Below are positions 3,483 to 19,038 of a stretch of DNA of 64,000 nt, one piece after another. The number at the start of each line of letters is the position of its first letter. Positions within the stretch are counted from its first letter, which is position 1. Made by a program: the position numbers and the translations under genes. Origin of the DNA: an uncultured Candidatus Binatia bacterium (GTDB lineage Bacteria > Desulfobacterota > Binatia > Bin18); NCBI GenBank assembly GCA_965200355.1, contig OZ241351.1, forward strand, positions 1,564,163 through 1,628,162, given 5' to 3'. Under the pieces are notes generated by a model. The model did no database searches. It was given only the letters and a program-made list of their open reading frames with translations, and was not told the origin of the DNA.

Positions 3483-6131
3483 TTAGAACTCGAAGCCGGC
3501 CCGCAGATAGTAGAACCCGCCGTTGAAGCCGTAGGGCGAGGTTTCCGGGTATTTCAGGCCGGCACCAGCCGCTTGCGGGTTCCTGCGCGGGTACTGATCA
3601 AAGATGTTTTCCGCGCCAAAGGCGACGGTCGCCGCCTGCATAAACGGCAGGTTCAGGAAGGTGTACGAGAGTTCCATATCGACCAGAAAGCGCTCGCCGG
3701 CATTAAAGCCGAAGCTGCCGTCGGTCGGGTAGTCGCGGAAACGGTCGTAGAAATACAACCGGGACAGGAAGCGCCACGGCCCCCAGTTGTGGTCGGCTGT
3801 CAGCGAGAACCGGAACTGCGGCAGGCCCTCTTCGATTTGCCGTACCAGCTTATCACTGATGAACTCTGGGGTGCGGCTGTCCACTTCGGTCTTATTCCAG
3901 TTGCCGACGAGCGTGAACTGCGTAAAGCCAGCCACCGATTGCAGCGGGTAGCTCGCTACCACGTCGATGCCCTGGGTGGTGGTGTCGAAGTCGTTGGTGT
4001 AGAAGCGGAGCACCGATATCTGGTTCGGCCCGACCACGGCGTCGAATTCTGCCCGGCTGATGCCCCGCTTGGCGAGTTCGTCGGCCACATTAAAGCGGCT
4101 GCTGCGAACGATGCGGTCCTGCATCTTGATACGATAATAATCGACGGTGACATCGACATCGGCCACGTTGAAGACAAGGCCGGCCGAATAGTTGACAGAT
4201 TTTTCTGGCGTCAAATCGCTGGCGCCGAAGAAGACCGAAGCCGGATGGTAGGCCGGAAAGGTGGCGTCGTCCACTAACAGGCCGTCTGAAAACGACGTCG
4301 TAATTTTGTTCACATTGGCTTGGCCGGGTGTGGGGGCGCGGAAGCCCGAGCTGACCGCTCCGCGCACGGCCAGCATCTCCACCGCCTGCCAGCGGGCCGA
4401 CACCTTCCCGTTGACGGACTCGCCGATTGGATCGTCAAAGTTCTCATACCGGCCGGCCACGCCCAGGGTCAGGGACCGAATCACTTCGGCCTCCAGGTCC
4501 ATATACAGGGCGTAATTCTTCCGCTCATAGTCACCGACGATATTGGGTCCGAATCCGGTAAACCCGTTCGAGCCAACGCCCAGCCCCTGCGGCCCGAAGC
4601 GGTCGAAGTCGGCATACCAGGAGTTTTCGCCCCCGAGTTTCACCTCATATTCTTCAATGTGATACTCGAAGCCGAACGCCATGTTCAGGTCGGAGTAGAG
4701 GAGGCTGCCGAGGTCCACGGGCCGGGAGATGTCCAGATTGAACGTCTTTTCGGTTTGGGAGACACCGCCCGGTCGGTACTCGGTTGGGATGGCGGTCCGC
4801 ATATCGGCCAACTGCGGGTTGATGGTGTTGAGCATGAAATAGTCCACGCTGTTCTCGCCGAAGTAGGCGCTCACATCGTAATACCAGCCGTTGAGCAGGG
4901 CGGAGGCGCTTTCCAGGGTTCCGGTCAGGCCAAAGGCGATGCTCCAGTCCTGCACGTAGCCGCCGAAGCGGGGAGTAAAACCGCCGGGAAAGCGCTCGAT
5001 GAACGAAAAGCAGTCCGGGCCGTTATCGGCAACTTCTCCAAATTGGGGCACGTTGCCGCGGAGAGGAATATCGCGACAGCCGCCCGACCTGCCGTCGGGC
5101 GACAGGTCAATCACCTTGACGGTGGGGGTGCCGTCTTCCAGCGAGTCGCCCCTGAAGACCCCCCCACGGGTATGAGGATTACGGAAATAGAAGCCACCCT
5201 CGACCTTGCGCTCGGCATAATTGCCAAAGGCGTACAGCCGGCTGTTGATCTCCTCCAAGTCCAAGCCGAGGTTGCCGAAGAATTTGTAGTCGTATTGCAC
5301 CTCTGGCGCGCCCCAAATCTGGGCCGCCGGCCGCCGCACGTGTTCGTTCCCGGCCTCAATCAGCCCGCGCGCATCGCTGCGTTGCACGCTGCGGCTGGTC
5401 TCGTCGGCATTCAGAAACTCGAAGCTGAAGTTGGCAAAGCCGTGCTCGGTCAGGGGCACGCCCAGATTGGCGGCCACTTGCACCTTGTCGCCGTCTCCGT
5501 GGTAGTTCTGGCCATAGCTGGTCTGGACGCTCAGCCCCTCGGTGTCTTCGCGCAGCTTGAAGTTCATCACGCCGGCAATGGCGTCCGAGCCATATTGAGC
5601 CGCGGCCCCGTCGCGCAGCACCTCAACCCGCTCCAGGGCAATGGACGGGATCGTGGAAATGTCGGCCCCCTGCGCTCCCCTGGAGTTCGGAGACCCCAGG
5701 AAATTGATCACCGACCCACGGTGGCGGCGTTTGCCGTTGACCAGCACCAGGGTGGAGTCCGGCGGCAACCCGCGTAGCGTGGCTGGTCGCACGAAGGTGG
5801 ACTCGTCGCTGATGGGTTCCTGGCCGACATTATAAGACGGCACGGTGGCCGACAGCAGGGAGTCCATGTCCCGAATGCCGTAGGTCTGCAAGTCTTCGCC
5901 CTGAATAACATCCACCGGCGCCGGCGAATCCTGGGCCGAACGACCCGCCACACGGGAGCCGACCACGCGTAGGTCGCCCAAGTCTATGATATCTGTTGAT
6001 GCCGCCGCCTCCGTCTCTTGAGCCGCGGCTGGTTCTTGCTGGTTCGTGTCTTGCGCTTCAGCCGCAGAGACACCCATCACGGTCAACACACTCACCAAAA
6101 GGCCGACCTGCCACCACTTCAGCTTTCTCAT
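3483..6131 (-). CDS. TonB-dependent outer-membrane receptor (882 aa), intact
   Basis: N-terminal signal peptide (MRKLKWWQVGLLVSVLTVMGVSAAEA). Plug motifs (DLQTYGIRDMDSLL, TLVLVNGKRR). Long barrel region. C-terminal aromatic ...LRAGFEF. Strong SD GAAGGAGG 8 nt upstream of the ATG at 6131. Confidence 0.9.
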   Translation of the reverse strand: MRKLKWWQVGLLVSVLTVMGVSAAEAQDTNQQEPAAAQETEAAASTDIIDLGDLRVVGSRVAGRSAQDSPAPVDVIQGEDLQTYGIRDMDSLLSATVPSYNVGQEPISDESTFVRPATLRGLPPDSTLVLVNGKRRHRGSVINFLGSPNSRGAQGADISTIPSIALERVEVLRDGAAAQYGSDAIAGVMNFKLREDTEGLSVQTSYGQNYHGDGDKVQVAANLGVPLTEHGFANFSFEFLNADETSRSVQRSDARGLIEAGNEHVRRPAAQIWGAPEVQYDYKFFGNLGLDLEEINSRLYAFGNYAERKVEGGFYFRNPHTRGGVFRGDSLEDGTPTVKVIDLSPDGRSGGCRDIPLRGNVPQFGEVADNGPDCFSFIERFPGGFTPRFGGYVQDWSIAFGLTGTLESASALLNGWYYDVSAYFGENSVDYFMLNTINPQLADMRTAIPTEYRPGGVSQTEKTFNLDISRPVDLGSLLYSDLNMAFGFEYHIEEYEVKLGGENSWYADFDRFGPQGLGVGSNGFTGFGPNIVGDYERKNYALYMDLEAEVIRSLTLGVAGRYENFDDPIGESVNGKVSARWQAVEMLAVRGAVSSGFRAPTPGQANVNKITTSFSDGLLVDDATFPAYHPASVFFGASDLTPEKSVNYSAGLVFNVADVDVTVDYYRIKMQDRIVRSSRFNVADELAKRGISRAEFDAVVGPNQISVLRFYTNDFDTTTQGIDVVASYPLQSVAGFTQFTLVGNWNKTEVDSRTPEFISDKLVRQIEEGLPQFRFSLTADHNWGPWRFLSRLYFYDRFRDYPTDGSFGFNAGERFLVDMELSYTFLNLPFMQAATVAFGAENIFDQYPRRNPQAAGAGLKYPETSPYGFNGGFYYLRAGFEF

Positions 6132-6410: not shown

Positions 6411-7853
6411 ATGCGGACATTGTTCTTGAATCCACCTGCGTATGAAAACTTCGATGGAGGCGCCGGCTCACGCTATCAGGCGACTCGGGAGGTCTGGTCG
6501 TTCTGGTACCCGACCTGGCTGTGCTATCCGGCCGGCATGATTGACAACAGCCGCGTTCTGGACGCCCCGCCCGAAGGCTTGAATCAGGCCCAGACCGTTG
6601 AAATCGCCCAAGCGTACGATTTTGTTGTGCTGCACACCAGTACCCCGTCGGTCAAACTGGATGCGCAGACCGCGGAGTTAATAAAAGAAAAGAATCCGGC
6701 CTGCCACATCGCCTTTGTGGGCGGTCAGGCCACGGCTGAGACGGAGAAGACCTTACAGATTTCTGAGGCCATTGATATCGTCGCGCGAAAAGAGTTTGAC
6801 TACTCCATGAAGGAAGTCGCTGAGGGCTGGGAGTGGAAAGATATCCGCGGCATCAGCTATCGTCAGGACGGACACATCCATCACAATCTTGACCGTCCGA
6901 CGCTGACCAATGAAGAGCTTGACCAATTGCCCTTTGTCACCCAGATTTATGATCGGGATTTGGACTTCCGCAAGTATAACAGCCCGTATTGCCAGTATCC
7001 GTATGTGTCGTTATACACCGGCCGGGGCTGTCCGGCGCGCTGTACGTTTTGTCTGTGGCCGCAGGTGACCACCGGCCATTCCTACCGCACCCGCTCGGTG
7101 GGCAATGTCATTGAGGAAGTGCAGGAAATGCAGCGCCTCTTTCCAGGGATGAAAGAAGTCTTCTTTGATGACGACACGTTTACGGCCGACCCGAAACGCG
7201 CCCGTGAGATCGCCAAAAAAATGGGCCGTCTCGGCCTGTGCTGGTCCACGAATGCCCGCGGCAATGTTGACTACGAGACCCTCAAGGTGCTGAAAGATGG
7301 CGGGCTGCGGCTGTTTGTGGTCGGCTATGAGTCGGGCAACGCTGCCATTCTCAAAAATATCAAAAAAGGCGTGGCCCTCGAAACCTCGCGGCGGTTTACG
7401 CGGGACTGCCACCAGCTTGGTATCCTGATCCACGGCACCTTTATTCTGGGCCTGCCGGGAGAAACCCGTGAGACCATGCAGGAGACCATGCGTTTCGCCC
7501 GGGAGATGAATCCAGAAACCATTCAGGTCTCCTTGGCTTCCCCCTATCCTGGCACCGCCTTCTACGATTTCGCCCTTGACAACGGCTATATCAAGGCCGA
7601 GGACATGGTGGGTGAGTCGGGCTATCAGCAGTGCGTGATTAACTATCCCAACCTGTCCGGGGAAGAAATTTTTGAAACGGTTGAGAAATTTTACCGCTCG
7701 TACTACCTCCGTCCGCGCTATATCTTCAAAGCCGTCAAAAAGATGGCGCGCGACCCGGAGGAGCGCAAACGGATGTGGCAGGAAGGCAAAGATTTTTTCC
7801 GTACCATGCGCAAACGGCGGGAGATGAACGTCTCGTCTTCTCCGGCGGTCTAG
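6411..7853 (+). CDS. hpnJ: Hopanoid-biosynthesis-associated B12-binding radical SAM protein HpnJ (cyclitol-ether/ring-contraction enzyme)
   Basis: 480 aa. N-terminal B12-binding-like domain plus radical SAM core (YTGRGCPARCTFC). The conserved C-terminal region is typical of the HpnJ family. Immediately followed by a GT2/GT21 glycosyltransferase (hpnI) and a YdjC-family gene (hpnK), the canonical hpnIJK context. Confidence 0.75.
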   Translation: MRTLFLNPPAYENFDGGAGSRYQATREVWSFWYPTWLCYPAGMIDNSRVLDAPPEGLNQAQTVEIAQAYDFVVLHTSTPSVKLDAQTAELIKEKNPACHIAFVGGQATAETEKTLQISEAIDIVARKEFDYSMKEVAEGWEWKDIRGISYRQDGHIHHNLDRPTLTNEELDQLPFVTQIYDRDLDFRKYNSPYCQYPYVSLYTGRGCPARCTFCLWPQVTTGHSYRTRSVGNVIEEVQEMQRLFPGMKEVFFDDDTFTADPKRAREIAKKMGRLGLCWSTNARGNVDYETLKVLKDGGLRLFVVGYESGNAAILKNIKKGVALETSRRFTRDCHQLGILIHGTFILGLPGETRETMQETMRFAREMNPETIQVSLASPYPGTAFYDFALDNGYIKAEDMVGESGYQQCVINYPNLSGEEIFETVEKFYRSYYLRPRYIFKAVKKMARDPEERKRMWQEGKDFFRTMRKRREMNVSSSPAV

Positions 7854-7878
7854 CGCGTCTCCTCCCGACCGGGGGGAG

Positions 7879-9108
7879 ATGGTGTCTGACTTCCATGTCC
7901 CACAAGAAGACACCTGCCCCAACGCTGGAGATTGGGAGAGGATGGGGACGTTTATTCTGCTGATCGTCTTCTGGTTCCTGGCCGGCCTGCTGTGCTGTGC
8001 CCTGGCCTATTGCCTCTTTAGTGTCTATGCGGCCTGGCGCTTTTTCCGCTCGCGTCCGACGCCTCCCACTCCCCTGCCCCCGGTCACGATGCTCAAGCCG
8101 CTCAAAGGCGCACCGCCCGACCTGTATGACAGTCTGGCAAGCTTTTGCCAGCTCGATTACCCGACTTTTCAAATCCTGTGCGGCGTCCGTGACCCCGATG
8201 ACCCGGCCGCGGCGGTTGTGACCAAAGTGCAGCACGACTTTCCCCAGTGCGATATTTCCCTGGTTGTTGCGCCGGCGGTGATTGGGACCAATTACAAGGT
8301 CAGCACCCTGCACCACCTGACCGCCCAGATGAAGTATGACTATCTGGTCATTACCGATAGTGATGTCCGGGTTGCCCCCGACTACTTGCGAACAATCATC
8401 CCCCCCTTGACCCAGCCGGAAACCGGACTGGTGACCTGTGTGTATCGCGGCGGTTCCCGCCGGCCCGTACCAGCCCTGCTGGAATCGCTGATGATTAACA
8501 CGACTTTTACCACCCAGGTCGTGGTCGCCAGCCAGGTAGAACAGCCCTCGTATGCCTTTGGCGCAACCATGGCGCTTAAACGCGCCGGCCTCGACGCGAT
8601 TGGGGGGTTTGCCCGGCTGTCTGATTATCTGGCAGACGACTATTATCTTGGATATTTCATTGCCCAGGCTGGGTATCAGATTCGCGTGCTGCCCGCTGTC
8701 GTGGAAACCCGCCCAGACGCGGGTTCGTTGCGCGAGTTGTTTACTCATCAGTTGCGTTGGGCGCGGACGCAACGCAACTGTCGGCCCGGCGGGTATATCG
8801 GGACGGTGGTGACGTTTGGCACGGTCTGGGCCGGCGTCAGCTTGGGCTGTTTTTGGGCGTCGGTCGAGATGACGGTTCTTGCCCTCAGCGTCCTCGGGCT
8901 ACGCCTGCTGAGCGCTGCTCTGATGAACGCGGTTTTTCTCCAATCGAGGCTGCCGCGGTCGGCTCTTCTGCTGACCCCACTCACCGACCTGATCTCTTTT
9001 GTGGTCTGGTGTGCCAGCTTGTGGGGCAACACGGTCCGTTGGCGGGAGTATACCTTCCGGCTCAAAAAAGATGGGCGTATGGTGCGCGTCAGTTCAGTTA
9101 AGCCCTGA
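7879..9108 (+). CDS. hpnI: Hopanoid-associated family-2/21 glycosyltransferase HpnI (N-acetylglucosaminyl transferase onto bacteriohopanetetrol)
   Basis: N-terminal TM helix. GT-A fold motifs (YLVITDSDV DxD-like, QLRWARTQ). Membrane C-terminus. The start may be the ATG at 7942, which has a GGGAGAGG SD. Gene order hpnJ-hpnI-hpnK. Confidence 0.7.
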   Translation: MVSDFHVPQEDTCPNAGDWERMGTFILLIVFWFLAGLLCCALAYCLFSVYAAWRFFRSRPTPPTPLPPVTMLKPLKGAPPDLYDSLASFCQLDYPTFQILCGVRDPDDPAAAVVTKVQHDFPQCDISLVVAPAVIGTNYKVSTLHHLTAQMKYDYLVITDSDVRVAPDYLRTIIPPLTQPETGLVTCVYRGGSRRPVPALLESLMINTTFTTQVVVASQVEQPSYAFGATMALKRAGLDAIGGFARLSDYLADDYYLGYFIAQAGYQIRVLPAVVETRPDAGSLRELFTHQLRWARTQRNCRPGGYIGTVVTFGTVWAGVSLGCFWASVEMTVLALSVLGLRLLSAALMNAVFLQSRLPRSALLLTPLTDLISFVVWCASLWGNTVRWREYTFRLKKDGRMVRVSSVKP

Positions 9109-10023
9109 TGCTTGTGTTCCCGCACGCAGCCCAGGCAGGGCGCAGTACGGCACGAGTCGAATGTCCTGTTGAACGAGCAGCTCGCGCACGGTCGGATTCG
9201 TCAGCGCGGCCAGCTCAACATCTCGGCGATAGGTCGGCGTCCAGCGTTCGACCTCGGGACACGGCCGGCCGGCCGGATGGCAGTACAGTTCCGTGACACC
9301 GGCTTGGAGGCGCGGGAACAGGCCCCGCAGATAGGGGGCATCCAGCGCGCCGCTTTGATGCAGGCCAAACAGATGGTCCGGGTAGGGGATGCCGGCCTGC
9401 CGCAGCTTTTTTGCTGTTATCCGGGCGAGGGGGGTAAAGACCACAGACTCTCCGCGTTTCCTCAATGCCTGGCGTGGGTCAATTGTCAGGCTGGTCGCCA
9501 GGTCTTCGCGGGTCAGACGCATAGCCGGGATAGGGTATTCCTGGGCGAGGGCCAGAAGAACGTCCATAACGACCGGGTGCATATGGATGTTGAGATGGCC
9601 ATCAATATGGGACAGGGGTAAGCCGGTGTTCAGAAAACGTTCAATCTGAGCACGGCACTCGACCCGGATTTCTTGCCGCGCCCGTGGGGAAAAATAATAC
9701 TGCAAGCCGGACCGGATTGGAGCCTGGCTGAAATTCCCCTGACTATCGGTGATCGCGCGTAGGTGCGGTTTGGAGAGCACCGCCCGCCCCTGGACTAAGG
9801 TCAGATGCAGGCCAACCCCGAGGCTTGGTGTTGAGCGGGCGAGGTCAACCGCTGCCTCCCAGGCCGGCGCCGTGACCATGAGGCTGGTATTGGTCAGAAT
9901 GCCCTGCTGATGGGCGTGTAATATGCCGGTATTGACCTGAGTGGACAGGCCGAAGTCGTCTCCGTTGACGATGAGATAGCGGGCGGCGGGGCCGGCCGGC
10001 TCCGCTCTTGCCTTTAGCGGCAC
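9094..10023 (-). CDS. hpnK: YdjC/ChbG-family carbohydrate deacetylase, HpnK-like (deacetylation of GlcNAc-BHT)
   Basis: LIVNGDDFGLS...NTGILHAHQQGILT N-terminus and H/D metal-binding residues are typical of the YdjC (ChbG) family. Convergent with hpnI, overlapping it by 15 nt. Confidence 0.7.
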   Translation of the reverse strand: MPLKARAEPAGPAARYLIVNGDDFGLSTQVNTGILHAHQQGILTNTSLMVTAPAWEAAVDLARSTPSLGVGLHLTLVQGRAVLSKPHLRAITDSQGNFSQAPIRSGLQYYFSPRARQEIRVECRAQIERFLNTGLPLSHIDGHLNIHMHPVVMDVLLALAQEYPIPAMRLTREDLATSLTIDPRQALRKRGESVVFTPLARITAKKLRQAGIPYPDHLFGLHQSGALDAPYLRGLFPRLQAGVTELYCHPAGRPCPEVERWTPTYRRDVELAALTNPTVRELLVQQDIRLVPYCALPGLRAGTQASGLN

Positions 10024-10029
10024 GGAATC

Positions 10030-10150
10030 CCCCTCACCCTAGCCCTCTCCCTCCAGGGGAGAGGGAATGTAGGGGCAAGCCGCTATGTCTACGACTGCGA
10101 CCATGTGTTTCTCCGAGAGGGAATGTAGGGGCAACCCCCTGTGGTTGCCC
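10030..10150. repeat. Two copies of a dispersed REP-like repeat (core AATGTAGGGGCA(A/C)CCCCCTGTGGT(G/T)GCCCGGC) plus a 9-bp-stem hairpin CCCTCTCCC/GGGAGAGGG
   Basis: GAGAGGGAATGTAGGGGCAA occurs at ~10047 and ~10115. The same core recurs at 36666, 36745 and 37333. Confidence 0.8.
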
Positions 10151-10170
10151 GGCCGCTGTCTCTCAATCCC

Positions 10171-10917
10171 TCAGCCCTCTTCGAGCGCGTCAAGCCGTTC
10201 GATAGCGGGCAGAATGGCGCGTTCGGCATATTCGAGGTCTTGCGGAAAGTCGATTTCCGTCCAGGGCAGGTCGTCAACCCGCTCAAAGCCAGCAGGGTGC
10301 TGAGCCAGCAACACCGAAAAGGCTTCTTCGTGCTCAATGGTGTCTCGGCCCTGAGCCACACAGTCCTCAAGAATAGAGCGGAGGAGCGGGACGGCCTCTC
10401 GGGCGACCTTGAAAAAACCGACCGACTCGCCCACGAGGTCGTAGTCACCCGCGCCACCCCGGATAATGGTCAGCACCCGCCCGGCCCGGGTGAGCAGCAT
10501 TTGTTCCTCGCCGGTATTCTCGGAACTCGGGTCAAGTAAGAAGCAGCTGGCATGTCTGGAGTGCACTAAGCGTTTCAGCAAACGCACCGGGAACAGCACA
10601 TCGGCGTCCATGACCAGCAGGTCGGCATCAAACTCGTGACGCGCGCTCCAGAGCGACAGAATGGCCCCCTTTTTGTACTGCTCGTTCCTGATATAGCGCA
10701 CGGCCACCGGGCCGCAGCGCGCGCCGATTGCTTTGACAATCAGGGCTCCCCGATAGCCGATCACGATAACCGCTTCTCTGACCCCAGCCGCGCCCAACGC
10801 GGTGAGGGTGCGTTCGAGCAGGGTCTTGCCATTGACCTGAATCAAACATTTGGGCCGCTGGTCGGTGGCGGCCTGAAGGCGTTTGCCAACGCCGGCCGCA
10901 AGGATAATGGCCTTCAT
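10171..10917 (-). CDS. LicC/MobA-like nucleotidyltransferase (candidate cytidylyltransferase for a phospho(no)-alcohol such as 2-aminoethylphosphonate or phosphocholine)
   Basis: MKAIILAAGVGKRL...KCL signature of sugar/phosphoalcohol NTP-transferases. 248 aa. Last gene of the minus-strand operon; 4-nt overlap with the aminotransferase. Confidence 0.65.
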   Translation of the reverse strand: MKAIILAAGVGKRLQAATDQRPKCLIQVNGKTLLERTLTALGAAGVREAVIVIGYRGALIVKAIGARCGPVAVRYIRNEQYKKGAILSLWSARHEFDADLLVMDADVLFPVRLLKRLVHSRHASCFLLDPSSENTGEEQMLLTRAGRVLTIIRGGAGDYDLVGESVGFFKVAREAVPLLRSILEDCVAQGRDTIEHEEAFSVLLAQHPAGFERVDDLPWTEIDFPQDLEYAERAILPAIERLDALEEG

Positions 10918-12002
10918 CGCCTCCCCCCTGTCAACACTGCTTTCAGGGCCTCAAGAAAACGCTGAAAATCGTCCAGGGTCAGATGGCCCATATTGGCCAC
11001 GCGGAAGATATCGGTGCGGAGTTTGCCCTGCCCCTCGTAAATGACAAAGCCTCGTTGTTTGAGGCCGGCGTGTAAATCGGGATAGGAAACGCCCTGGGGT
11101 AAGACGAGAGAGGTCAGGGAGTTCGACCGCAATGCTGGCGGAAGGAGAAAGGCGAGGCCGAGTTGTGCAAAGCCGTTGCGCAGGAATTGCGCGGCCAGAC
11201 GGTAGCGTTCGACCCGTCCCGCTGGTGTTTCCGCCAGGAGTTCGTCAAGGGCAGCGTCGAGTGCATACCAGGCCGGGATGGCCGGAGTAAAAGGGATGCT
11301 GCGTCGTTCCTGGGCCTCCCAGTGCAGGGGCAGGTGGAGATATAACGAACGACGGGGAGCGTCCTGCATGGCTGCCATGACTTCGTTCCGAACCAACACA
11401 AAGGCTACACCCGGCTGGCCTTGGATACATTTGTTTGCCGTACAGGCGCACAGGTCCACGCTGTCACGCCCAACATCGAGGTCTTCGCCGCCCAGCGCAC
11501 TCACTGCGTCCAGCAGAAACAACCGGCCCTGCCGGCGCACGATACGGCCAATTTCCGTTACCGGGTTGAGCAGGCCGGTTGTGGTCTCATGCTGGACCAG
11601 GGCCACGGCCGTAATAGCGGGGTCAGCGCTCAAGGCAGAGGCAATCTGCTCCGGGTTGGGCGCTTGGGTCCAGGCATAGGTCAGTTCTACGGTCGGGATA
11701 CGGTGGGCTTCGGCCATCTGGCGCATCCGGTCGCCATAGACGCCGTTGTTAATGACGAGGAGCTTTCCGCCCGCGGGCAAGGCTGAGGCAATCATGGCCT
11801 CAACCGCCAGGGTGCCCGAGCCGCTGACCACCACCCCGGTATAGCCCTCCGGGGCGAACGCCTGGAGGAGCTTGGCGCGCACCGCGGCCAGCAGGTCGGC
11901 AAATTCTGCTTCGCGGTGGCAGAGGTCTCCCCGCAGCAGGGCCTGCCGGACACGTGGAGAAACATTGACCGGGCCGGGGTTCAGAAGAATGTATTGCTGC
12001 AT
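10914..12002 (-). CDS. phnW: Class-V aminotransferase, 2-aminoethylphosphonate:pyruvate aminotransferase (PhnW)-like
   Basis: Start taken at MQQYILLNPGPVNVS (ATG at 12002), not the longer ORF start that overlaps the upstream gene. Motifs LLNPGP, ANKCIQGQPGVAFV and FRVANMG parallel PhnW/AGT-family enzymes. Confidence 0.6.
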   Translation of the reverse strand: MQQYILLNPGPVNVSPRVRQALLRGDLCHREAEFADLLAAVRAKLLQAFAPEGYTGVVVSGSGTLAVEAMIASALPAGGKLLVINNGVYGDRMRQMAEAHRIPTVELTYAWTQAPNPEQIASALSADPAITAVALVQHETTTGLLNPVTEIGRIVRRQGRLFLLDAVSALGGEDLDVGRDSVDLCACTANKCIQGQPGVAFVLVRNEVMAAMQDAPRRSLYLHLPLHWEAQERRSIPFTPAIPAWYALDAALDELLAETPAGRVERYRLAAQFLRNGFAQLGLAFLLPPALRSNSLTSLVLPQGVSYPDLHAGLKQRGFVIYEGQGKLRTDIFRVANMGHLTLDDFQRFLEALKAVLTGGRR

Positions 12003-12006
12003 CACC

Positions 12007-12606
12007 TCAGTGTCCTGTGGTCCTCTGCCGGCTTGCGATGGCCTGCATAAAGCGCCTGACGATGTGCTGTGGCGCGTGCGTAATCCGACCGATATGCCGC
12101 TCCTCCCGGTCTGGCGCAATTTTAATCAGCAGAAAGGACGGTCCCTTTTTTTCGGACAGGTCTGGTGCCAGCATCTCCTGCGCCGCGGCGCGTAATTGGT
12201 CGGCATCCTCCGCGTGGCGCACATCAACATAGCCGCTCGCCCGCGCCACTGCATCGAGCGCTACGCGGCTGGAAATCGTCGGCTGGTTGCCTGTCGAGCC
12301 GTAGACTTCGTTATCAAAAACCATATGGACCAGATTGCGGGGCTGCTGCGCGCCAATCAGGGCGAGTGCGCCCATATTCATCAGGACATTGCCATCACCG
12401 TCAAAGACGACCACGCGCCGCTCGGGTTTGCTCAGGGCCACCCCAAGTGCAATGGACGCAGCCAGGCCCATTGAGCCGATCATGTAAAAATTGCCGAGCC
12501 GGTCCTCAAGATTGAAGGACTCCCGCGCAATAAACCCATTTGCATGGACTACCAGGGCGTCTTGCAGGACAGGGACCACCACCCCCAGGGCCTGGGCTAG
12601 GTTCAT
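12007..12606 (-). CDS. Phosphonopyruvate/sulfopyruvate decarboxylase, beta (C-terminal TPP-binding) subunit
   Basis: GNFYMIGSMGLAASIALG...DGDGNVLMNMGAL...NEVYGSTGNQ is the ThDP-binding C-terminal domain of the Ppd/ComE family. ATGA overlap with the alpha subunit. Confidence 0.65.
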   Translation of the reverse strand: MNLAQALGVVVPVLQDALVVHANGFIARESFNLEDRLGNFYMIGSMGLAASIALGVALSKPERRVVVFDGDGNVLMNMGALALIGAQQPRNLVHMVFDNEVYGSTGNQPTISSRVALDAVARASGYVDVRHAEDADQLRAAAQEMLAPDLSEKKGPSFLLIKIAPDREERHIGRITHAPQHIVRRFMQAIASRQRTTGH

Positions 12607-13088
12607 GCGGCCACTCCAGGCGGGAGAATCAGCGCCGCCGGGCGACTGGTCTGCTTCAGGGTCGAGGCCGCCCAGCCAATCGCGTCCTCAAGGGTCTGTT
12701 CTTCAAGCACCCGGTACGGAATTTTCAGGGTGGATAACAAGGCGGGCAGGATGTCGCCCATAATAAGATGCTCCGGCGCATCCTTGCCCTGATAGCCGCG
12801 CCACGTAATCAGCAGCAGACAGGGCAGGGCATAGATCAAACTGAGAGAAGACAGGGCATTCAGGCAGACCCCCAGACCCGAGTTCTGCATAATGACAACG
12901 GGTTGTTTGCCTGCCATATAGGCTCCTGCGGCCAGGCCCACCGCCGCGTCCTCGCGCGTCTCGGCAATATAGCCCCCCCGTTCTTCAAGCGTGGCAATCA
13001 CCCCCTTGACCAAGGAGCACGGCACTCCGGTAAAAAAATCAAAGCCGGCCTGCCTGAGATGGTGCACAAAATGGGGTCCACTGACCAT
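12603..13088 (-). CDS. Phosphonopyruvate/sulfopyruvate decarboxylase, alpha (N-terminal pyrimidine-binding) subunit
   Basis: 161 aa; FFTGVPCSLVKGVI...VVIMQNSGLG is typical of the ComD/Ppd N-domain. The split 161 + 199 aa architecture matches ComDE sizes. Confidence 0.65.
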   Translation of the reverse strand: MVSGPHFVHHLRQAGFDFFTGVPCSLVKGVIATLEERGGYIAETREDAAVGLAAGAYMAGKQPVVIMQNSGLGVCLNALSSLSLIYALPCLLLITWRGYQGKDAPEHLIMGDILPALLSTLKIPYRVLEEQTLEDAIGWAASTLKQTSRPAALILPPGVAA

Positions 13089-13112
13089 GAGGGAACGGGC
13101 CTCCTTTTTGGG

Positions 13113-15980
13113 CTATTGGCTTGGTTGGGTCGGACTCAATCGGCTCACCTCACGCCCCCTGTCTCCTGTCGAGTCCTGCCCGGGGAGTGCTGGAGCGGCG
13201 AGCCTCGAATCCTGCCGGCTTCCTTCCGTTCGATATAAGAGCAGGGGCAGAATCACAATAGAGGCGAGCAGGACGCTCCCGACTGCCAGGGTCAGCAGGA
13301 GGCCCATGCTGAAAATGCCATAGTACTGAGCGACCATCAGACTCCCAAAGCCGACCATGGTCGTCAGCGAAAACAGCACAACCGCCTGGCCGGTACTGCC
13401 GGCAATCAGGCTGCCGACCGAGCCGACCTGACCGGCCCGAAAACGATGGACGAGATGGATACCATTCTCTACGCCAATGCCGATAATCAGGGGGGCGGCA
13501 ACCATATTGGCCAGATTAAATTGCACATTCCCCAGCCACATCAGGCCCGCGGTCCAGACCATGCCCAGACCGAGTGGCAGGACGGCCAGCAGGGCATCCG
13601 TGACCCGTCGGAGCGCCACAAAGGTGACAACCAGGATGGCGAGGAAGGCATACCCGGCCGCCTCAATATAACCGGCCTGCATCGCCCCAATAGACTCGTA
13701 GCCAATAATCGGGGAGCCGGTCACATCCGGGTCAACCGTGCGCAACTGCCGAATGAACTCCGTTAGTGGCTCGCGCTCCCAGATATTTTCCTTGGGATAG
13801 ATCTGTAAAAGAAACCGTTGGCCGTCGCGGCTGACAAAGCGGCTGCGCAACTGAGACGGGACATCCGCAAAGGTAATCGGCCCAGCCGGAGATAAATTAT
13901 TCTTGAGCAGAGACCATTTGTCCTGAAAGTCGACAAACAGCGCGTCCTGAAAAAGGGCCAGACGCTGCTGAACATTCTGTTCGGGCAGGGTGCGGAGCGC
14001 TTCAAAAACGGCCAGCAGATGATGGCGGGCCTCATGCAGGAGCGTTTCGCTGGTGTCTTCCTGGGTGCGAATTTTCAGACGGAGTTTATCCAGGGTCTGG
14101 GCCAGCGGCTTGACTGCCACCGGCTGGGGGTCCGTGCGGAGCGGAGGGAGCTCGCTCAGCAGCGGGCGCATAGCAGCAAGGATAGGCAGGCGTTCCTGTT
14201 GTCCGTCCGGAATCAGTGAGGCGACGCTCTCCACAGTTTCCACGCTGGACAGGGCGGCAAATGCCAGGGCCTTTTGCCGCGCCGCTTCTGGCGTCGAGGC
14301 GGTCGCCAAGGAGTTCCAGGACGAGCGTTCAGAGTTTTCAATGATGCGTTTTTCCCACTCAACAGACTCGGTGCCGTGCGCCTGGAGGTTCAGCAAATTA
14401 TAGTCAAAGGAGACCCAGGGCAGCGCCAGGAGTCCCGCCGCGGTGGCCAGGCCGGCGATGCCGAAGAGGACCCCGCTCTTCTGTTCGACGTATCGGCCCA
14501 GCCCAGAAAACGCTGTCTGCAAGAGCGTCTGTCGTCCGACGGCAACCCGCCAGGGCCAGAACGCATCCATCCCGACGATCATGGCCGGCAAGAACGTCAG
14601 AATCGCCACAACCGACAACAGAATGCCCCCGCCCGAAATGATGCCGAGTTCCTGCACGCCGCGAAAGTCCGCCAGTATGACCGCAAAAAAGGCGAGCGCG
14701 GTGGTCAGCGCCCCCGCAATAATGCTGGGGACGGTCTGTTCAAACACGATGGTAATGGCTTCGGCCTGGTTTTTGCCCTTGCCCCGCTCTTCCTCATAGC
14801 GGGTCATGAAATGGACGCCGAAGTCGTCGGCCAGGCCGAGCAGCATTGGGGCGATAAAGACGGTAATAATCGTCAGATGACCGACTGAGAGGGTGACAAA
14901 ACCCAGCGTCCAACTCAGACCGATCATGAGCGCTGAAACAATGAAGAGCGGGTGCCGAATTCGCCGGAAAAAGATCAAGTACAGGAGCGCAATACCCGAC
15001 AGGGACACCACGGTTGCCACGGCCGTATCGTGCTGAGCGCTGAGCATTTCATCATTGCCCAGCGCCTTTGTGCCGGTGACGCCAGCCTCCAGACCCGGAA
15101 ACTCCCCTTTCAACTCGGCAATCGCCTGCCGAATAGCGGCCATCGACTCCTGAAGGTCGTTGAAACCCGCGCTGGCGTCTTCTTTTGCCTCGACCATGAG
15201 GAAGAGGTATTGACGGTTCTCGGCAATGAGGAAGCCGTCATCATCGAGCTGGGCGGTCCCACCAAAAAACTCGGCCCAGGGAGAGCGGTAGCGGTAGTCT
15301 TGTCCGTGCAGCGCGCGTGCAATCTCCTGTAATAATGCGGTGAGGAAGGACAACTGAGAGTCGGAGAACTCACCCGAGTCCTCATCCAGCGGGGCTCCCA
15401 GCCCGAGGAAGTCGTCAACCAGATGCGACACAACGGCCCGACTGACTTGGGTGTTAATCGCCTCGAACAGCGTATTCAGACCGGGGTTTGTCAGCAACTC
15501 GTGAATGATCTCTTGCGAGTCTGCCAGACTCCGCTGTAAATCGCGCAGATCCTCAGCCGGCAGATAGAGCAGCTTCTTGCCCTCTAAGGAGGAAGCATCG
15601 ACGCGGTAAAAAATCTCGGCAATATGCTCCTGCTCCCGAGCGAGCCGTTCACCCAGACGGGTCACAAAGGCTTTGCCCTGGGGGATGTCTTGCGGGGCAA
15701 CCACCACCGCCACCTGATCCACCCCGACAAATTCTTCGGAATACTCTTCGTCGAGTTGCAGGTAGCGCTTATCGGTCGAAATCAGATCATTGCGGCCGGT
15801 GACGAGTTCGAGGTGGCGGGCGGTGTAGACCGAGGCCGCAACCGAAAGCAGGAGACACAGGGCCAGGGCCGTCTTGGCGTAGGCAACGATTCCCCGAGCG
15901 CAGGCTCGCAGGGCGCGTTTTTCCAGGGCAACGAGGCGGTGTTTCAAAGAAGGGCTGACCTGCACGGATACGGTCTCCAC
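13113..15980 (-). CDS. hpnN: RND/MMPL-family hopanoid transporter HpnN-like (955 aa)
   Basis: 12-TM RND topology with two large periplasmic loops. The size and MMPL-type motifs match HpnN. Sits in an operon with MlaC- and MlaA-like genes and next to hpnIJK. Confidence 0.75.
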   Translation of the reverse strand: METVSVQVSPSLKHRLVALEKRALRACARGIVAYAKTALALCLLLSVAASVYTARHLELVTGRNDLISTDKRYLQLDEEYSEEFVGVDQVAVVVAPQDIPQGKAFVTRLGERLAREQEHIAEIFYRVDASSLEGKKLLYLPAEDLRDLQRSLADSQEIIHELLTNPGLNTLFEAINTQVSRAVVSHLVDDFLGLGAPLDEDSGEFSDSQLSFLTALLQEIARALHGQDYRYRSPWAEFFGGTAQLDDDGFLIAENRQYLFLMVEAKEDASAGFNDLQESMAAIRQAIAELKGEFPGLEAGVTGTKALGNDEMLSAQHDTAVATVVSLSGIALLYLIFFRRIRHPLFIVSALMIGLSWTLGFVTLSVGHLTIITVFIAPMLLGLADDFGVHFMTRYEEERGKGKNQAEAITIVFEQTVPSIIAGALTTALAFFAVILADFRGVQELGIISGGGILLSVVAILTFLPAMIVGMDAFWPWRVAVGRQTLLQTAFSGLGRYVEQKSGVLFGIAGLATAAGLLALPWVSFDYNLLNLQAHGTESVEWEKRIIENSERSSWNSLATASTPEAARQKALAFAALSSVETVESVASLIPDGQQERLPILAAMRPLLSELPPLRTDPQPVAVKPLAQTLDKLRLKIRTQEDTSETLLHEARHHLLAVFEALRTLPEQNVQQRLALFQDALFVDFQDKWSLLKNNLSPAGPITFADVPSQLRSRFVSRDGQRFLLQIYPKENIWEREPLTEFIRQLRTVDPDVTGSPIIGYESIGAMQAGYIEAAGYAFLAILVVTFVALRRVTDALLAVLPLGLGMVWTAGLMWLGNVQFNLANMVAAPLIIGIGVENGIHLVHRFRAGQVGSVGSLIAGSTGQAVVLFSLTTMVGFGSLMVAQYYGIFSMGLLLTLAVGSVLLASIVILPLLLYRTEGSRQDSRLAAPALPGQDSTGDRGREVSRLSPTQPSQ

Positions 15981-16038
15981 TCACCCAACGCGCTGGGATG
16001 TCTCAGACGAAGAGAGGCGGGGGCAGCGAGGCCGGCGT

Positions 16039-16647
16039 TTATCCGGCCTCGTCGGTCTTGGCGTTTGCAATGATCTGCTGCATCCGCTTCACCAACTCTT
16101 CGTAGGACTGTTTGGACATGAGCGATTGCACTTGTCTGCGCAGGTTGCTGGCCATACTGACCCCGTCGAGCCGAACGTCCCAGATTTTCCATACGCCCTC
16201 CGACTGATTGAGCCGAAAACCGATGGTCACCCGCCCCTCATCTGGATTCACGACCGAGACCTCGGTCAGGGCCTCGTTGCCTTGCTGCTGCATGTCGCCG
16301 TATTCGAACTGGGTGTCCGCCAGAAATTCCGACGCTCTGGGGTAGGCCAGTTCACGCAGCAAGCGTGTCAAAAGGCCGATGAAATCAGCCTCCTTCTCTT
16401 GGCCGAGGGTGTCCCAGTGGGGTCCCATCAGCCAGCGCGACAGTTGCGTAATGGCCAGGTTTTTTTCGATCTCTTCATTGGTGCACTGCGGGGGAGCCGA
16501 GGGCAAACCAAAGTCTTGACCACACGACTGCATAGTCGAGAGCAGCCGCTCGGTCACCTCCGCCGGAGAATCTGCCCAGCCGAGCCGGGGAAAAAGGAGA
16601 CCGACCACCAAAAGGAGAATTGTGACCACGATCAAGCTCCTCAACAC
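16039..16647 (-). CDS. MlaC/Ttg2D-family periplasmic lipid-binding protein (HpnM-like)
   Basis: 202 aa with signal peptide. Size and pattern fit toluene-tolerance Ttg2D/MlaC proteins found in hpn clusters. Confidence 0.55.
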   Translation of the reverse strand: MLRSLIVVTILLLVVGLLFPRLGWADSPAEVTERLLSTMQSCGQDFGLPSAPPQCTNEEIEKNLAITQLSRWLMGPHWDTLGQEKEADFIGLLTRLLRELAYPRASEFLADTQFEYGDMQQQGNEALTEVSVVNPDEGRVTIGFRLNQSEGVWKIWDVRLDGVSMASNLRRQVQSLMSKQSYEELVKRMQQIIANAKTDEAG

Positions 16648-16688
16648 GCCAGTCGCCGTTTTCCTGATGTTTGCACGAGGCCGGCGGC

Positions 16689-17459
16689 CTATTCTGCGAT
16701 CTGCCTCTCCCGATTTTGCAGATAGAAGTCTTGCACTGCGCTATACATATCAAGAGAGTAGCGGTCCACACTCTCGAAGAGTTCCAGATTGAGAGAGCGT
16801 TCGTTGACCGCACTGCTGACCAGGGTGCCTGTATCCGTTGCCATGACTTCGACCGTGGATAAAAAATAGATCTTCGGGTCCATCGCTCCGTCAGCCACCC
16901 GGCCAATAGCATCGCGCACCGTGGAAGGGCCGATAAAGGGCAGCACCAGATACGGACCCGAAGCCACGCCATATTTCCCGAGCGTTTGCCCAAAGTCTTC
17001 TTCGCTGACTTCGAGTCCGAACTGCGTTTTGGCCACATCGAAAAAGCCGAACCCACCGACGGTTGTGTTAATCGCAAAGCGCCCGGCTTCCCGCGCCGCC
17101 CCGTCCAGCTTGAGCTGAAAGAGGCTATTCGCAAAGCGCGGCACAACCCCGATATTATGGAAAAAACGGCGCACGCTGAGACGCGCCGGCTCCGGCACCG
17201 CCCCGGCATAGGAACGGGCGACCGGGCGGAGAATATGTTCGTCCATCCAGATGTTGAAAGAGAACATCTTCTCATTAAAGGGTTCAAAAACAGACGGTTT
17301 GTACACCGGGGTGGATCTGTCAAGCATGTCCAGCGAGTCATCCAGCCCCGACTGCATTGCCCCATTCTGAGCCCCGGCCTTTGGCACATGCGGGCCAAGT
17401 CCGAGAACACTGACGAAACACACAACCATCATCACACCGCTCAGTCGTTGTTTTTGCAT
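16689..17459 (-). CDS. MlaA/VacJ-family outer-membrane lipoprotein
   Basis: Signal peptide, then conserved VacJ region (FNEKMFSFNIWMDEHILRPVARSY...GRFAINTTVGGFGFFDVA...LVLPFIGPSTVRD). Confidence 0.8.
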   Translation of the reverse strand: MQKQRLSGVMMVVCFVSVLGLGPHVPKAGAQNGAMQSGLDDSLDMLDRSTPVYKPSVFEPFNEKMFSFNIWMDEHILRPVARSYAGAVPEPARLSVRRFFHNIGVVPRFANSLFQLKLDGAAREAGRFAINTTVGGFGFFDVAKTQFGLEVSEEDFGQTLGKYGVASGPYLVLPFIGPSTVRDAIGRVADGAMDPKIYFLSTVEVMATDTGTLVSSAVNERSLNLELFESVDRYSLDMYSAVQDFYLQNRERQIAE

Positions 17460-17477: not shown

Positions 17478-17900
17478 CTAGGCGTTTCGGGTTGGCAGCA
17501 AAACGGTCGCCGTACCAATGACCCAGCGTTCGCCGTCATCGTTCTCCATCCAGATATCACACTCAGCCGTCCGTCGCTCCGTATCCTTCTGGGTGACAAA
17601 GCCGAGCAGGTGAATCGCGCAGTCGGGCAGGACCGGGCTGCGAAACGTCGTACCGATCCGGGTAATCTGGGCGGCTTGGTTCCACTCGCCGATCAGTCGG
17701 GCCAGCAAGCCCATACTCAGGACCCCAGGCGCGATCATGCCCGGCAGGCCCTCCTGGCGGGCCCCTTCGTCGTCCGTGAAGCGGGGGAAATCCATACCGG
17801 CCGTTTTGGCGTATTTGCGGACAAAATCCTTGGTCAGGAGCAGGTCGATAGGCGGCAACTCGTCGCCCTCTTCGACCTCTTCAAAATAGCGCGTCTTCAT
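17478..17900 (-). CDS. MaoC-like (hot-dog) enoyl-CoA hydratase subunit
   Basis: 140 aa hot-dog fold. ATGA overlap with the upstream MaoC-like partner gene. Confidence 0.65.
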   Translation of the reverse strand: MKTRYFEEVEEGDELPPIDLLLTKDFVRKYAKTAGMDFPRFTDDEGARQEGLPGMIAPGVLSMGLLARLIGEWNQAAQITRIGTTFRSPVLPDCAIHLLGFVTQKDTERRTAECDIWMENDDGERWVIGTATVLLPTRNA

Positions 17901-18340
17901 CGCTGCATAATCCTATGGTCAACAATCGCAACCTGCTGGCCGTCCTGGTTCGTGATCTTATTCCGCAGGACGATAAAATACATGGAGCCGCTGCGCCCGG
18001 TTTTCTCGTAAATATCGTGGATGGTGCTGACCATTTTCAGCCGGTCCCCGGGTCGGACTGGAGCAAAAATTTCAACATCACGTCCACCGTCAAAGCCGAC
18101 CTTGCCGAAACGCGGCATATGCTCGGGCGTCATTTTTTTGGGCCGGAGCCGGGTCACATACGTCGGAGCCGCCACCAGACCGCCATAGGGGCCGTTCGCA
18201 GCCGCTTCTGGGTCGGTGTAGAGCGGGTTGGTCTCTCCCAGCGCCTCGGCAAATTGCAGGATGTCGGCTGTCTCAACCGCTGGAAAGTCGGTTTCGTCAA
18301 ACACCTGGCCTAAAATGGACCGATCAAATTCCAGTGCCAT
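17897..18340 (-). CDS. MaoC-like (hot-dog) dehydratase subunit, partner of 17478..17900 (ChsH1/ChsH2-type split hydratase)
   Basis: 147 aa. Two adjacent small hot-dog proteins are typical of heteromeric MaoC hydratases. Confidence 0.65.
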   Translation of the reverse strand: MALEFDRSILGQVFDETDFPAVETADILQFAEALGETNPLYTDPEAAANGPYGGLVAAPTYVTRLRPKKMTPEHMPRFGKVGFDGGRDVEIFAPVRPGDRLKMVSTIHDIYEKTGRSGSMYFIVLRNKITNQDGQQVAIVDHRIMQR

Positions 18341-18351
18341 GCGTGTCTCCT

Positions 18352-19038
18352 CTACGCGCCCGACCCACCGTTGGGCGCCGGCCGGGCTGGGGTGCGTCGG
18401 ACCCGAAAATCAACCGGACGGTAGCCGCCGGTTCGGAGCGCCTCAACCAATTCTTCTGTATTCGTAATATCTTGCTCAAACGCGGTGGCGCAAATCCCGA
18501 CAAAGCTGACCAGATGGGCATCGCTGCCCCCAAAGGCGTGATAGCCATACGTATCAATCAGCGCGGCCACCCGTTCATTTTCGCCTTTTTTGCTGCCCCC
18601 GTTCAGAGCTTCAACGCCCACAACGCCGGCGAGCGGAGGACGGTTTGCATAGTGTTCAATCAGGCCGATAGTGGGCCGCCCTGGGTGACACGGCATGGCC
18701 ACCCCGCCCATGCGCGCCACTTCGTCAATCAACTCCTGGGCTCGCAGCCGGACGTTGGAGAAGTCGAAGCGTCGCAGCATGGCGTCGTTGACCCCATATA
18801 CCAGCACATGACCATACTCGGTCTCGACTTCAGACGCTTTAAGAATCAGCAGGTCATACTTATCTTCCAGCGCCCGGTAGTCACTCTGGGTGTCGAACTG
18901 ACGGTGTTCGGTCAGCACGATGCCGTCCAGCGGCCGTTCGCCTCGTTTCCGGGCCAGCCATTTGAGATAAGCCTCAACCGGGGCGCGGCTGTCGTCCGAG
19001 GCTTCAGAATGAAGGTGGAGGTCAATTACTCGTGCCAT
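18352..19038 (-). CDS. PHP-domain metal-dependent phosphoesterase
   Basis: MARVIDLHLHSEASDDS N-terminal His-rich PHP motif. 228 aa. Confidence 0.7.
   Translation of the reverse strand: MARVIDLHLHSEASDDSRAPVEAYLKWLARKRGERPLDGIVLTEHRQFDTQSDYRALEDKYDLLILKASEVETEYGHVLVYGVNDAMLRRFDFSNVRLRAQELIDEVARMGGVAMPCHPGRPTIGLIEHYANRPPLAGVVGVEALNGGSKKGENERVAALIDTYGYHAFGGSDAHLVSFVGICATAFEQDITNTEELVEALRTGGYRPVDFRVRRTPARPAPNGGSGA

Follow-up and report, generated by a model that had tools for sequence, protein, structure and literature searches.

Hopanoids rank among the major membrane lipids and serve as geological biomarkers; how they reach the outer membrane is only starting to be understood. In the best-matching tailoring pathway, HpnI converts bacteriohopanetetrol (BHT) to N-acetylglucosaminyl-BHT (GlcNAc-BHT), HpnK converts GlcNAc-BHT to glucosaminyl-BHT (GlcN-BHT), and HpnJ converts GlcN-BHT to BHT cyclitol ether (PMC12324291, Table 1), whilst hopanoid trafficking by HpnN, HpnM and HpnS was proposed in 2025 for alpha- and gammaproteobacteria (PMC12324291). 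A separate pathway activates the phosphonate 2-aminoethylphosphonate (AEP): PntC makes the cytidine monophosphate conjugate CMP-AEP and occurs naturally fused to a transaminase (Rice et al., PMC6697681), and phosphoenolpyruvate (PEP) mutase is usually encoded adjacent to, or fused with, this nucleotidyltransferase in known AEP clusters (PMC6697681). Here we analysed a 64-kb stretch of the genome of an uncultured Candidatus Binatia bacterium (contig OZ241351.1; the whole stretch is referred to as the window, and all coordinates are those of the window), in which genes resembling all three systems lie together. The best explanation for this locus is an envelope-lipid cluster of two convergent transcription units, in which hopanoid aminosugar/cyclitol tailoring and an HpnN/HpnM/HpnS-type shuttle would be co-transcribed with a supply of CMP-AEP for a lipid head group; we assign this reading a probability of approximately 0.6.

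A preliminary description had placed a hopanoid tailoring and export module at 6411-17459, and every gene that it named was recovered there in the list of open reading frames (ORFs) and in NCBIfam and Pfam scans. The order hpnJ-hpnI-hpnK that it reported holds by position but not by strand, as hpnK lies opposite hpnJ-hpnI and ends a minus-strand operon; hpnK and hpnI are convergent, and their 3' ends overlap by 15 bp. Unit 1, on the plus strand, would consist of hpnJ and hpnI, with hpnL ancestrally beside it. Unit 2, on the minus strand and approximately 12.5 kb in length, would encode in its first half an alpha/beta hydrolase, a thiolase, a DUF35 protein, a PHP phosphoesterase, two MaoC-type proteins, an MlaA-like protein and an MlaC-like protein, and in its second half an HpnN-like RND pump, the alpha and beta subunits of phosphonopyruvate decarboxylase (Ppd), an AEP transaminase, a PntC-like nucleotidyltransferase and HpnK. 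From 21607 down to 9094 the minus-strand genes are separated by 4-bp overlaps or short gaps (18-58 bp, and 147 bp before hpnK), for example 18 bp between the first MaoC gene and that of the MlaA-like protein and 24 bp between the stop codon of the pump gene and the start of Ppd-alpha. This spacing fits a single operon, so that transcription probably extends far beyond the module originally described. A scan for promoters and terminators gave counts equal to those from shuffled sequence and was uninformative, and Rfam and tRNA scans of the window found nothing, including no cobalamin riboswitch near the TonB receptor genes or hpnJ. The gene arrangement was seen again in more than 30 independent contigs and is far beyond chance.

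The head-group genes were assigned with family models, in each case above the NCBIfam equivalog cutoff. The B12-binding radical-SAM enzyme gene hpnJ (6411-7853, plus strand) scored 726.7 bits against TIGR03471 (cutoff 577.6; E 1e-218), the GT21 glycosyltransferase gene hpnI (7879-9108, plus strand) 373.9 bits against TIGR03472 (cutoff 310; 156.5 bits against PF13506), and the YdjC-type deacetylase gene hpnK (9094-10023, minus strand) 308.3 bits against TIGR03473 (cutoff 232.6; 251 bits against PF04794). By these models HpnI, HpnK and HpnJ are shown to be orthologues of the three BHT-tailoring enzymes, in the sense of family membership, and the tailoring half of the preliminary description is supported. 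The radical-SAM CxxxCxxC motif of HpnJ is intact (CPARCTFC from residue 207), the protein matches PF04055 (75.7 bits) and, weakly, the B12-binding domain PF02310 (21.8 bits against a gathering score of 32.1), and it is 82-96% identical across the related loci. The radical-SAM protein is HpnJ, as had been proposed; its reading as HpnP or HpnR is ruled out by the scores, HpnR reaching 62 bits against a cutoff of 650 and no HpnP model occurring among the matches. HpnI retains its DxD motif (DSD at residue 160), and its likely true start is at approximately 7942, later than in the ORF list, as in the 388-amino acid call on identical contigs.

A gene for an hpnL-like membrane protein (LPG_synthase_TM/flippase-like) occupies 1-801 on the plus strand; it is cut by the left edge of the window, its reading frame being open from base 1, and the partial protein scored 126 bits against the HpnL model TIGR03476. 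A full-length orthologue in one related locus (L035) scored 181.3 against the cutoff of 195.65. In L037 hpnL directly adjoins hpnJ, lying immediately upstream, and the two genes also adjoin in L050, whereas in the window two TonB-dependent receptor genes stand between them, an arrangement found in this lineage only. One of these receptors appears to be split into two overlapping ORFs at 968-2901 (minus strand), encoding a barrel part of 291 amino acids and a plug end of 376 amino acids, by a frameshift, pseudogenization or sequencing error; it lies beside an intact receptor of 882 amino acids (3483-6131).

The transport genes form a triad on the minus strand. HpnN has reportedly been studied by Doughty (2011) and Kumar (2017), and HpnM and HpnS are the subject of a 2025 preprint by Lawrence et al. 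The pump gene (13113-15980) encodes an HpnN-like RND (MMPL/HAE-3) protein, predicted to be an inner-membrane lipid transporter, whose closest solved relatives are the HpnN structures 6WU0 and 5KHN (E 2e-57); residues 39-920 are colinear with residues 21-865 of 6WU0, essentially the full length, and the hydropathy profile fits 12 helices and two large periplasmic loops. As read from the alignment, the Asp corresponding to HpnN D344 and the Thr and Leu corresponding to T818 and L826 are conserved, residues that are reportedly functionally important in HpnN, according to Kumar et al. in 2017. At pump residues approximately 830-845 the sequence GIGVENGIHL occurs where Burkholderia HpnN has GVGVAFKVYF; the acidic residue, kept in the Binatia pump and absent from characterised HpnN, may bear on proton coupling. 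The reading of the pump as a BstA sterol transporter is ruled out by score (NF045600, 266.3 bits against 1400).

Of the two other members, the MlaC-like (HpnM-like) protein, putatively a periplasmic lipid-binding protein, is encoded at 16039-16647, matches PF05494 with 74.7 bits and has an N-terminal signal peptide. The MlaA/VacJ-like (HpnS-like) protein is encoded at 16689-17459 and matches PF04333 with 215 bits; in this protein and in all its orthologues the signal is of the signal-peptidase-I type, the cleavage site is AxA and a lipobox is lacking. The features by which HpnS is recognised are found in it, namely an MlaA domain, export, and a gene beside those of HpnN-like and MlaC-like proteins. 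Export of hopanoids by this triad is plausible on the evidence of its domains and neighbours.

Between the pump gene and hpnK lies a group of phosphonate-type genes (10171-13088, minus strand). The putative phosphonopyruvate decarboxylase is split into an alpha subunit (12603-13088), the N-terminal domain of a thiamine pyrophosphate (TPP) enzyme, matching positions 1-152 of TIGR03297 with 131.2 bits, and a beta subunit (12007-12606), the TPP-binding C-terminal domain, matching positions 175-358 with 176.6 bits. The two genes overlap by 4 bp, and the best solved relative of the beta subunit is 9IZ3_B, a 'putative phosphonopyruvate decarboxylase beta subunit' (E 1e-31). The class V aminotransferase gene that follows (10914-12119, with a likely start at approximately 12002, later than in the ORF list) scored 363.2 against the PhnW-AepZ model TIGR03301 (cutoff 360.8); the closest solved relatives of its product are AEP-pyruvate transaminases (PhnW; E 2e-61), followed by the transaminase domain of 6PD1 (Treponema denticola Tde1415; E 1e-54). 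Family models show it to be of the AEP type, which again is a statement of family membership. The PntC/LicC-like nucleotidyltransferase gene (10171-10917; PF12804) begins within the last 4 bp of the aminotransferase gene, and the best solved relative of its product, over the full length, is the PntC domain of the T. denticola PntC-AEP transaminase fusion 6PD1 (E 8e-12), a weak match of 48 bits, with LicC second. Two acidic residues of PntC contact the amine of AEP (PMC6697681); the equivalent of Glu196 is conserved, and that of Glu104 is Asp. For each of the three parts of the cassette the best solved relative is a phosphonate enzyme, and the products of the cassette are most likely AEP and CMP-AEP, in line with the phosphonyl-tailoring pathway.

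Conservation was examined in loci of related genomes (labelled L023, L027, L039 etc.). A scan of species-representative genomes with the pump gave 29 loci, nearly all in Candidatus Binatia metagenome-assembled genomes, at 58-91% identity, and synteny was established by tblastn of the window proteins against the loci, from contexts retrieved by exact protein match, and by scanning metagenomes with the fragment of hpnL. The count took in the loci whose pump shares at least 58% identity and for which sequence downstream was available (n=30). Ppd-alpha and Ppd-beta directly follow the pump in all 30 of these, the aminotransferase gene follows Ppd wherever the contig extends that far, hpnK occupies the same position in the same operon in 26, and hpnI and hpnJ are convergent on hpnK in approximately 25. 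The link between pump and Ppd is kept despite exchange of the MlaA-like gene for a TolC-like one, gain and loss of PMT and PEMT genes, and shifts of the thiolase module and TonB receptors. The phosphonate genes, which had been called unrelated-looking in the preliminary description, are instead the most stably linked partners of the pump, lying with it in one operon that continues to hpnK. Pumps at 45-57% identity (L025, L047 and L052) stood alone or in unrelated contexts, which gave no information on cargo.

Two forms of the cluster were distinguished. Type A, comprising the window and its relatives, has genes for the MlaA-like protein, MlaC-like protein, RND pump, Ppd alpha and beta, transaminase, nucleotidyltransferase and HpnK, with hpnI and hpnJ on the opposite strand. 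Type B (L039, L046 and L049-L051; pump 58-63% identical) contains, in the interval from the nucleotidyltransferase gene to hpnK, additional genes for an ArnT-like GT-C glycosyltransferase (PMT/PMT_2) and for one or two membrane methyltransferases of PEMT/ICMT-like type, often has a TolC-like outer-membrane efflux protein (OEP) and a small ORF in place of MlaA, and carries between hpnL and hpnJ a gene for a 423-amino acid fusion of an NTP-transferase-like domain and a CDP-alcohol phosphotransferase (IPCT/DIPPS-like). This fusion was located at 9318-10589 (minus strand) of L039 and at 11766-13034 (minus strand) of L041, and also in L038, L042 and L044; beside it lies a conserved membrane protein of 371 amino acids with a weak LiaF-TM match. 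The head-group proteins of the type B locus L039 are likewise above the cutoffs (HpnJ 742.7, HpnI 369.4 and HpnK 309.6 bits). The lineage of the window is without the CDP-alcohol phosphotransferase fusion, PMT and PEMT in the cluster. The type B additions make up the toolkit of the 'Group 1' clusters that are predicted to produce phosphonolipids (PMC8942020).

In L023, L027, L049 and L051, a TolC-like OEP gene and a small ORF stand in place of the MlaA-like gene. The replacement region falls at approximately 7500-9300 in each of these four loci, the small ORF is conserved (85-99 amino acids), and no membrane-fusion protein gene was seen with the TolC-like OEP in any of them. An HpnN-like pump with an outer-membrane channel is an unusual pairing.

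According to the reading that we prefer, the substrate of the RND pump would be a lipid of polycyclic or amphiphilic structure, extracted from the inner membrane and passed on in the periplasm to the MlaC-like protein, from which the MlaA-like partner in the outer membrane would receive it, following the HpnN-HpnM-HpnS scheme. The split decarboxylase and the transaminase would convert phosphonopyruvate to AEP, and the nucleotidyltransferase would join AEP and cytidine triphosphate to give CMP-AEP. Since the cassette is locked between the pump and hpnK across related genomes, CMP-AEP most likely feeds a head-group modification of the lipid that uses the pump route. The phosphonyl transferase in the window lineage would be encoded elsewhere, candidates being the CDP-alcohol phosphotransferases at 44879-46387 and 51780-53015, and PEP mutase must likewise be encoded outside the operon. 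The cargo, the direction of transport, the acceptor of AEP and the production of hopanoids are all deduced here from gene content.

Several observations weigh against this reading. PEP mutase was not found in the window, nor at distances of up to 10 kb from the pump in approximately 50 loci, whether by motif, in the Pfam assignments of the called genes, or by tblastn with a Mytilus PepM sequence. In the AEP clusters already known, this enzyme is present almost without exception. The minus-strand operon encodes no AEP transferase, and the decarboxylase is below every model cutoff: together its two subunits reach 307.8 bits, where the single-chain model TIGR03297 requires 312.5, and the sulfopyruvate decarboxylase models score equally well (ComE 176.8, cutoff 221.5; ComD 130.2, cutoff 147.95). 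On the hopanoid side, shc, hpnH and hpnG were not found in the window or the flanks examined, and hopanoid synthesis by the organism is for that reason deduced rather than shown; the flanks of related loci that were searched contained no squalene-hopene cyclase (SHC) DxDDTA motif, and the genes upstream of hpnL in L035, L039 and L041 were unrelated housekeeping or catabolic genes. Hopanoid production is nevertheless indirectly supported, because HpnI and HpnJ were confined to genomes with SHC and HpnH in a survey of IMG genomes (PMC12324291).

Checked against the HpnN family models, the pump fell below both cutoffs (TIGR03480, 595.2 against 751.85; NF052374, 341.3 against 1100), and the MlaC-like protein fell below that of HpnM (TIGR03481, 45.7 against 160.1, in the C-terminal part only). 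The export half of the preliminary description is plausible insofar as the triad matches HpnN-HpnM-HpnS, and is weakened by the missed HpnN and HpnM cutoffs and by the exchange of the MlaA-like gene in sister lineages. The characterised Burkholderia HpnN is distant from the pump, the solved HpnN proteins scoring 198 and 182 bits, whereas more than 150 uncharacterised representatives of 50%-identity clusters scored 389-1180 bits (1.84 billion representatives searched); the pump therefore belongs to a large HpnN-like branch and is not a close orthologue. Such a branch fits the reported division of HpnN-annotated proteins into one clade of Pseudomonadota and a second of Desulfobacterota and uncharacterised taxa (PMC12324291). 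Further points concern the synteny: all related loci come from one class, such that the gene order may be partly inherited rather than selected, L027 has pump, Ppd and transaminase without the nucleotidyltransferase or hpnK/I/J, and L041 has hpnL, the CDP-alcohol phosphotransferase, hpnJ and hpnI without the pump half.

A bolder possibility is that the phosphonate ends up on the hopanoid itself, with HpnI, HpnK and HpnJ building an aminosugar or cyclitol head group on BHT and CMP-AEP being transferred to one of the head-group hydroxyls, a step that would fall to the CDP-alcohol phosphotransferase fusion in the deeper lineages and to a paralogue in the genome of the window; PEMT-like N-methylation would follow where present, and the RND/MlaC/MlaA shuttle would carry the product to the outer membrane. 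We regard this as unlikely, yet give it some weight because the phosphonolipid toolkit of type B is interleaved with the hpn genes. These genes do not stand in separate blocks but run hpnL, CDP-alcohol phosphotransferase, hpnJ hpnI, hpnK, PEMT, PMT, nucleotidyltransferase, transaminase, Ppd and RND; in the split locus L041 the phosphotransferase stays with hpnL/J/I, the models closest to the fusion (DIPPS and PIP synthases) transfer onto cyclitol hydroxyls, HpnJ makes a cyclitol, and hpnK is predicted to be co-transcribed with the AEP cassette in 26 loci. Set against this, a lipid of that kind has not been described, and the literature searched linked nothing on hopanoids with phosphonopyruvate decarboxylase; the window lineage lacks the fusion, PMT and PEMT in its cluster, PEP mutase was missing from the window and the roughly 50 loci, and L027 keeps the AEP genes and pump with no hpn genes. 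The last of these loci instead favours export of a non-hopanoid phosphonolipid, either diacylglycerol-AEP or ceramide-AEP, by the pump with its MlaC-like and MlaA-like (or TolC-like) partners, the hpn genes being mere neighbours in a lipid island. We consider this more doubtful still. It would account for pump, Ppd and transaminase being the most invariant part of the cluster (30/30 loci, and kept in L027 without hpnK/I/J) and for a pump only distantly related to characterised HpnN, and a set of bacterial ceramide genes, along with two for CDP-alcohol phosphotransferases, occurs in the window itself; Bacteriovorax stolpii is known to contain sphingophosphonolipids, and CDP-alcohol phosphotransferase phosphonolipid clusters are predicted in Burkholderiales (PMC8942020). 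The ceramide genes, however, are more than 35 kb away, hpnK lies inside the operon in 26 loci with hpnI and hpnJ convergent on it in approximately 25, and hopanoid and sterol transporters are the closest relatives of the pump among solved proteins and family models.

Finally, the cassette might have no connection with phosphonates, the split TPP enzyme being a sulfopyruvate or other 2-oxoacid decarboxylase, the transaminase making taurine or another small amine for a lipid or osmolyte, and the nucleotidyltransferase activating some other phospho-compound, such as a sugar or cyclitol phosphate for HpnI or a CDP-alcohol transferase. Scores for the Ppd model are matched by those for ComD and ComE, all of them below cutoff, no PEP mutase lies near any of the approximately 50 loci, and the nucleotidyltransferase also matches inositol-1-phosphate cytidylyltransferases, its PntC match being as weak as 48 bits. 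This is nonetheless very improbable: the transaminase passes an AEP-specific cutoff and has AEP transaminases as its best solved relatives by a wide margin, the one solved protein closely related to the beta subunit carries the annotation of a Ppd beta subunit, the pairing of transaminase and nucleotidyltransferase mirrors the natural PntC-transaminase fusion, and a sulfonate would presumably not be activatable as a nucleotide conjugate in the same way.

Upstream in the minus-strand operon, a set of genes at 17478-21607 encodes an alpha/beta hydrolase, an SCP-x/Ltp-type thiolase, a DUF35 protein (ChsH2-type OB/zinc ribbon), a PHP phosphoesterase and two MaoC-type hydratase subunits, and is probably co-transcribed with the transporter genes, judging from the spacing. 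This module is syntenic in nearly all related loci and is missing upstream in L048. The best solved relatives of the thiolase are 4U4E (E 9e-115) and then lipid-transfer proteins including 6OK1, and the set as a whole resembles steroid side-chain hydratase/aldolase (ChsH1-ChsH2-Ltp2) or thiolase-DUF35 complexes.

Further along the window, the sphingolipid-type gene set at 51780-59894 may represent an acceptor pathway for CMP-AEP, which would give ceramide-AEP. It comprises genes for a CDP-alcohol phosphotransferase of 411 amino acids (51780-53015), a diacylglycerol kinase-like protein (53112-54089), a fatty-acid desaturase family protein (55056-56192, minus strand), an HpnA/CerR-like SDR (56384-57433), a serine palmitoyltransferase (57360-58724; 529 bits against the CFB-type model, below the cutoff of 640) and a GNAT acyltransferase (58752-59894). 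A second head-group or export gene set, at 39662-46387, encodes an NTP transferase (39662-40534) and, on the minus strand, a protein of 852 amino acids with an ELM1-like glycosyltransferase domain (40526-43084), an MsbA/HepA-like ABC exporter (43088-44830), and a CDP-alcohol phosphotransferase of 502 amino acids (44879-46387) that is a paralogue of the 411-amino acid protein (36-39% identity).

The remaining features of the window include a BPTD_3080-family restriction endonuclease in two plus-strand ORFs, 25562-28243 (model positions 1-773) and 28174-28854 (763-966), likely through a frameshift, followed by a DNA methyltransferase-containing protein of 930 amino acids (29223-32015, plus strand). 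LptF and LptG are fused in a single polypeptide of 758 amino acids (37369-39645, minus strand), with both models above their cutoffs. A nitrosocyanin-like cupredoxin is encoded at 36689-37264 (plus strand; 72.7 bits, below cutoff), and an ORF for a pyrroloquinoline quinone (PQQ) methanol/ethanol-family dehydrogenase at 62183-63598 (plus strand) covers model positions 212-530 only, through N-terminal truncation or a miscalled start.

The locus extends the proposed HpnN/MlaC/MlaA route to a separate, uncultured lineage at the level of a phylum, and its natural variants, for example those with a TolC-like protein in the place of MlaA, may help to direct studies of mechanism. The AEP/CMP-AEP cassette, being coupled to the pump and hpnK, makes a testable prediction of a phosphonate-modified envelope lipid, possibly a phosphono-hopanoid. 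In its most specific form, which we put forward as a long shot, AEP-bearing BHT-glucosamine or BHT cyclitol ether, N-methylated in some lineages, would be built and delivered to the outer membrane by one co-regulated cluster; if true, this would connect the chemistry of carbon-phosphorus bonds with hopanoids and yield a biomarker lipid that bears a phosphonate. In the Binatota literature searched, neither hopanoids nor phosphonate synthesis are discussed in this context, and the passages that mention hopanoids concern other taxa or terpene clusters in general. Since PEP mutase does not adjoin the AEP-type genes, clusters of this kind would escape surveys restricted to pepM neighbourhoods.

The HpnIJK pathway, the HpnN/M/S proposal and the Ppd-AEPT-PntC pathway are each of an already known kind; what is new is the fusion of the three modules into a single conserved operon, together with the lack of an adjacent PEP mutase, the alternation of MlaA-like and TolC-like proteins, and the host lineage. 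The Binatia genes share with the HpnI-HpnK-HpnJ pathway of Burkholderia cenocepacia (Schmerk et al. 2015, as summarised in PMC12324291) the equivalog assignments, the clustering of the three genes, and GT21, YdjC and B12-radical-SAM domains with intact motifs, and differ from it in having hpnK on the opposite strand, at the end of a transporter/phosphonate operon, and in belonging to the Binatia. As in the HpnN-HpnM-HpnS system, the RND, MlaC-like and MlaA-like genes stand side by side next to hopanoid genes, the periplasmic components carry signal peptides, and the pump is colinear with solved HpnN; unlike in that system, which was proposed for alpha- and gammaproteobacteria and not for Binatia, neither the pump nor the MlaC-like protein reaches its family cutoff (HpnN and HpnM, respectively), no lipobox is present in the MlaA-like protein, and a TolC-like protein takes the place of the latter in sister lineages. 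In the Mla system of Escherichia coli (MlaA-MlaC-MlaFEDB), proteins with MlaA and MlaC domains are likewise encoded together, which points to lipid shuttling across the periplasm, but the inner-membrane partner in Binatia is an RND pump rather than the MlaFEDB ABC complex, and MlaA of E. coli has the lipobox that the Binatia protein lacks. With BstABC of Methylococcus capsulatus the locus has in common an HpnN-related RND pump and periplasmic carriers for polycyclic lipids, whilst the BstA model scores 266 against 1400 and the Binatia carriers are Mla-type rather than PhnD- or TRAP-type. The adjacent genes for the putative Ppd, the AEP transaminase and the LicC/PntC-like nucleotidyltransferase correspond to the Ppm-Ppd-AEPT-PntC phosphonyl tailoring pathway (Rice et al. 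2019), and the deeper Binatia lineages add a CDP-alcohol phosphotransferase, as in the Group 1 'CDP-OH' phosphonolipid clusters (Li & Horsman 2022). The Binatia cassette departs from these in having no adjacent PEP mutase, in its decarboxylase being split into alpha and beta subunits, and in being embedded between a lipid RND pump and hpnK.

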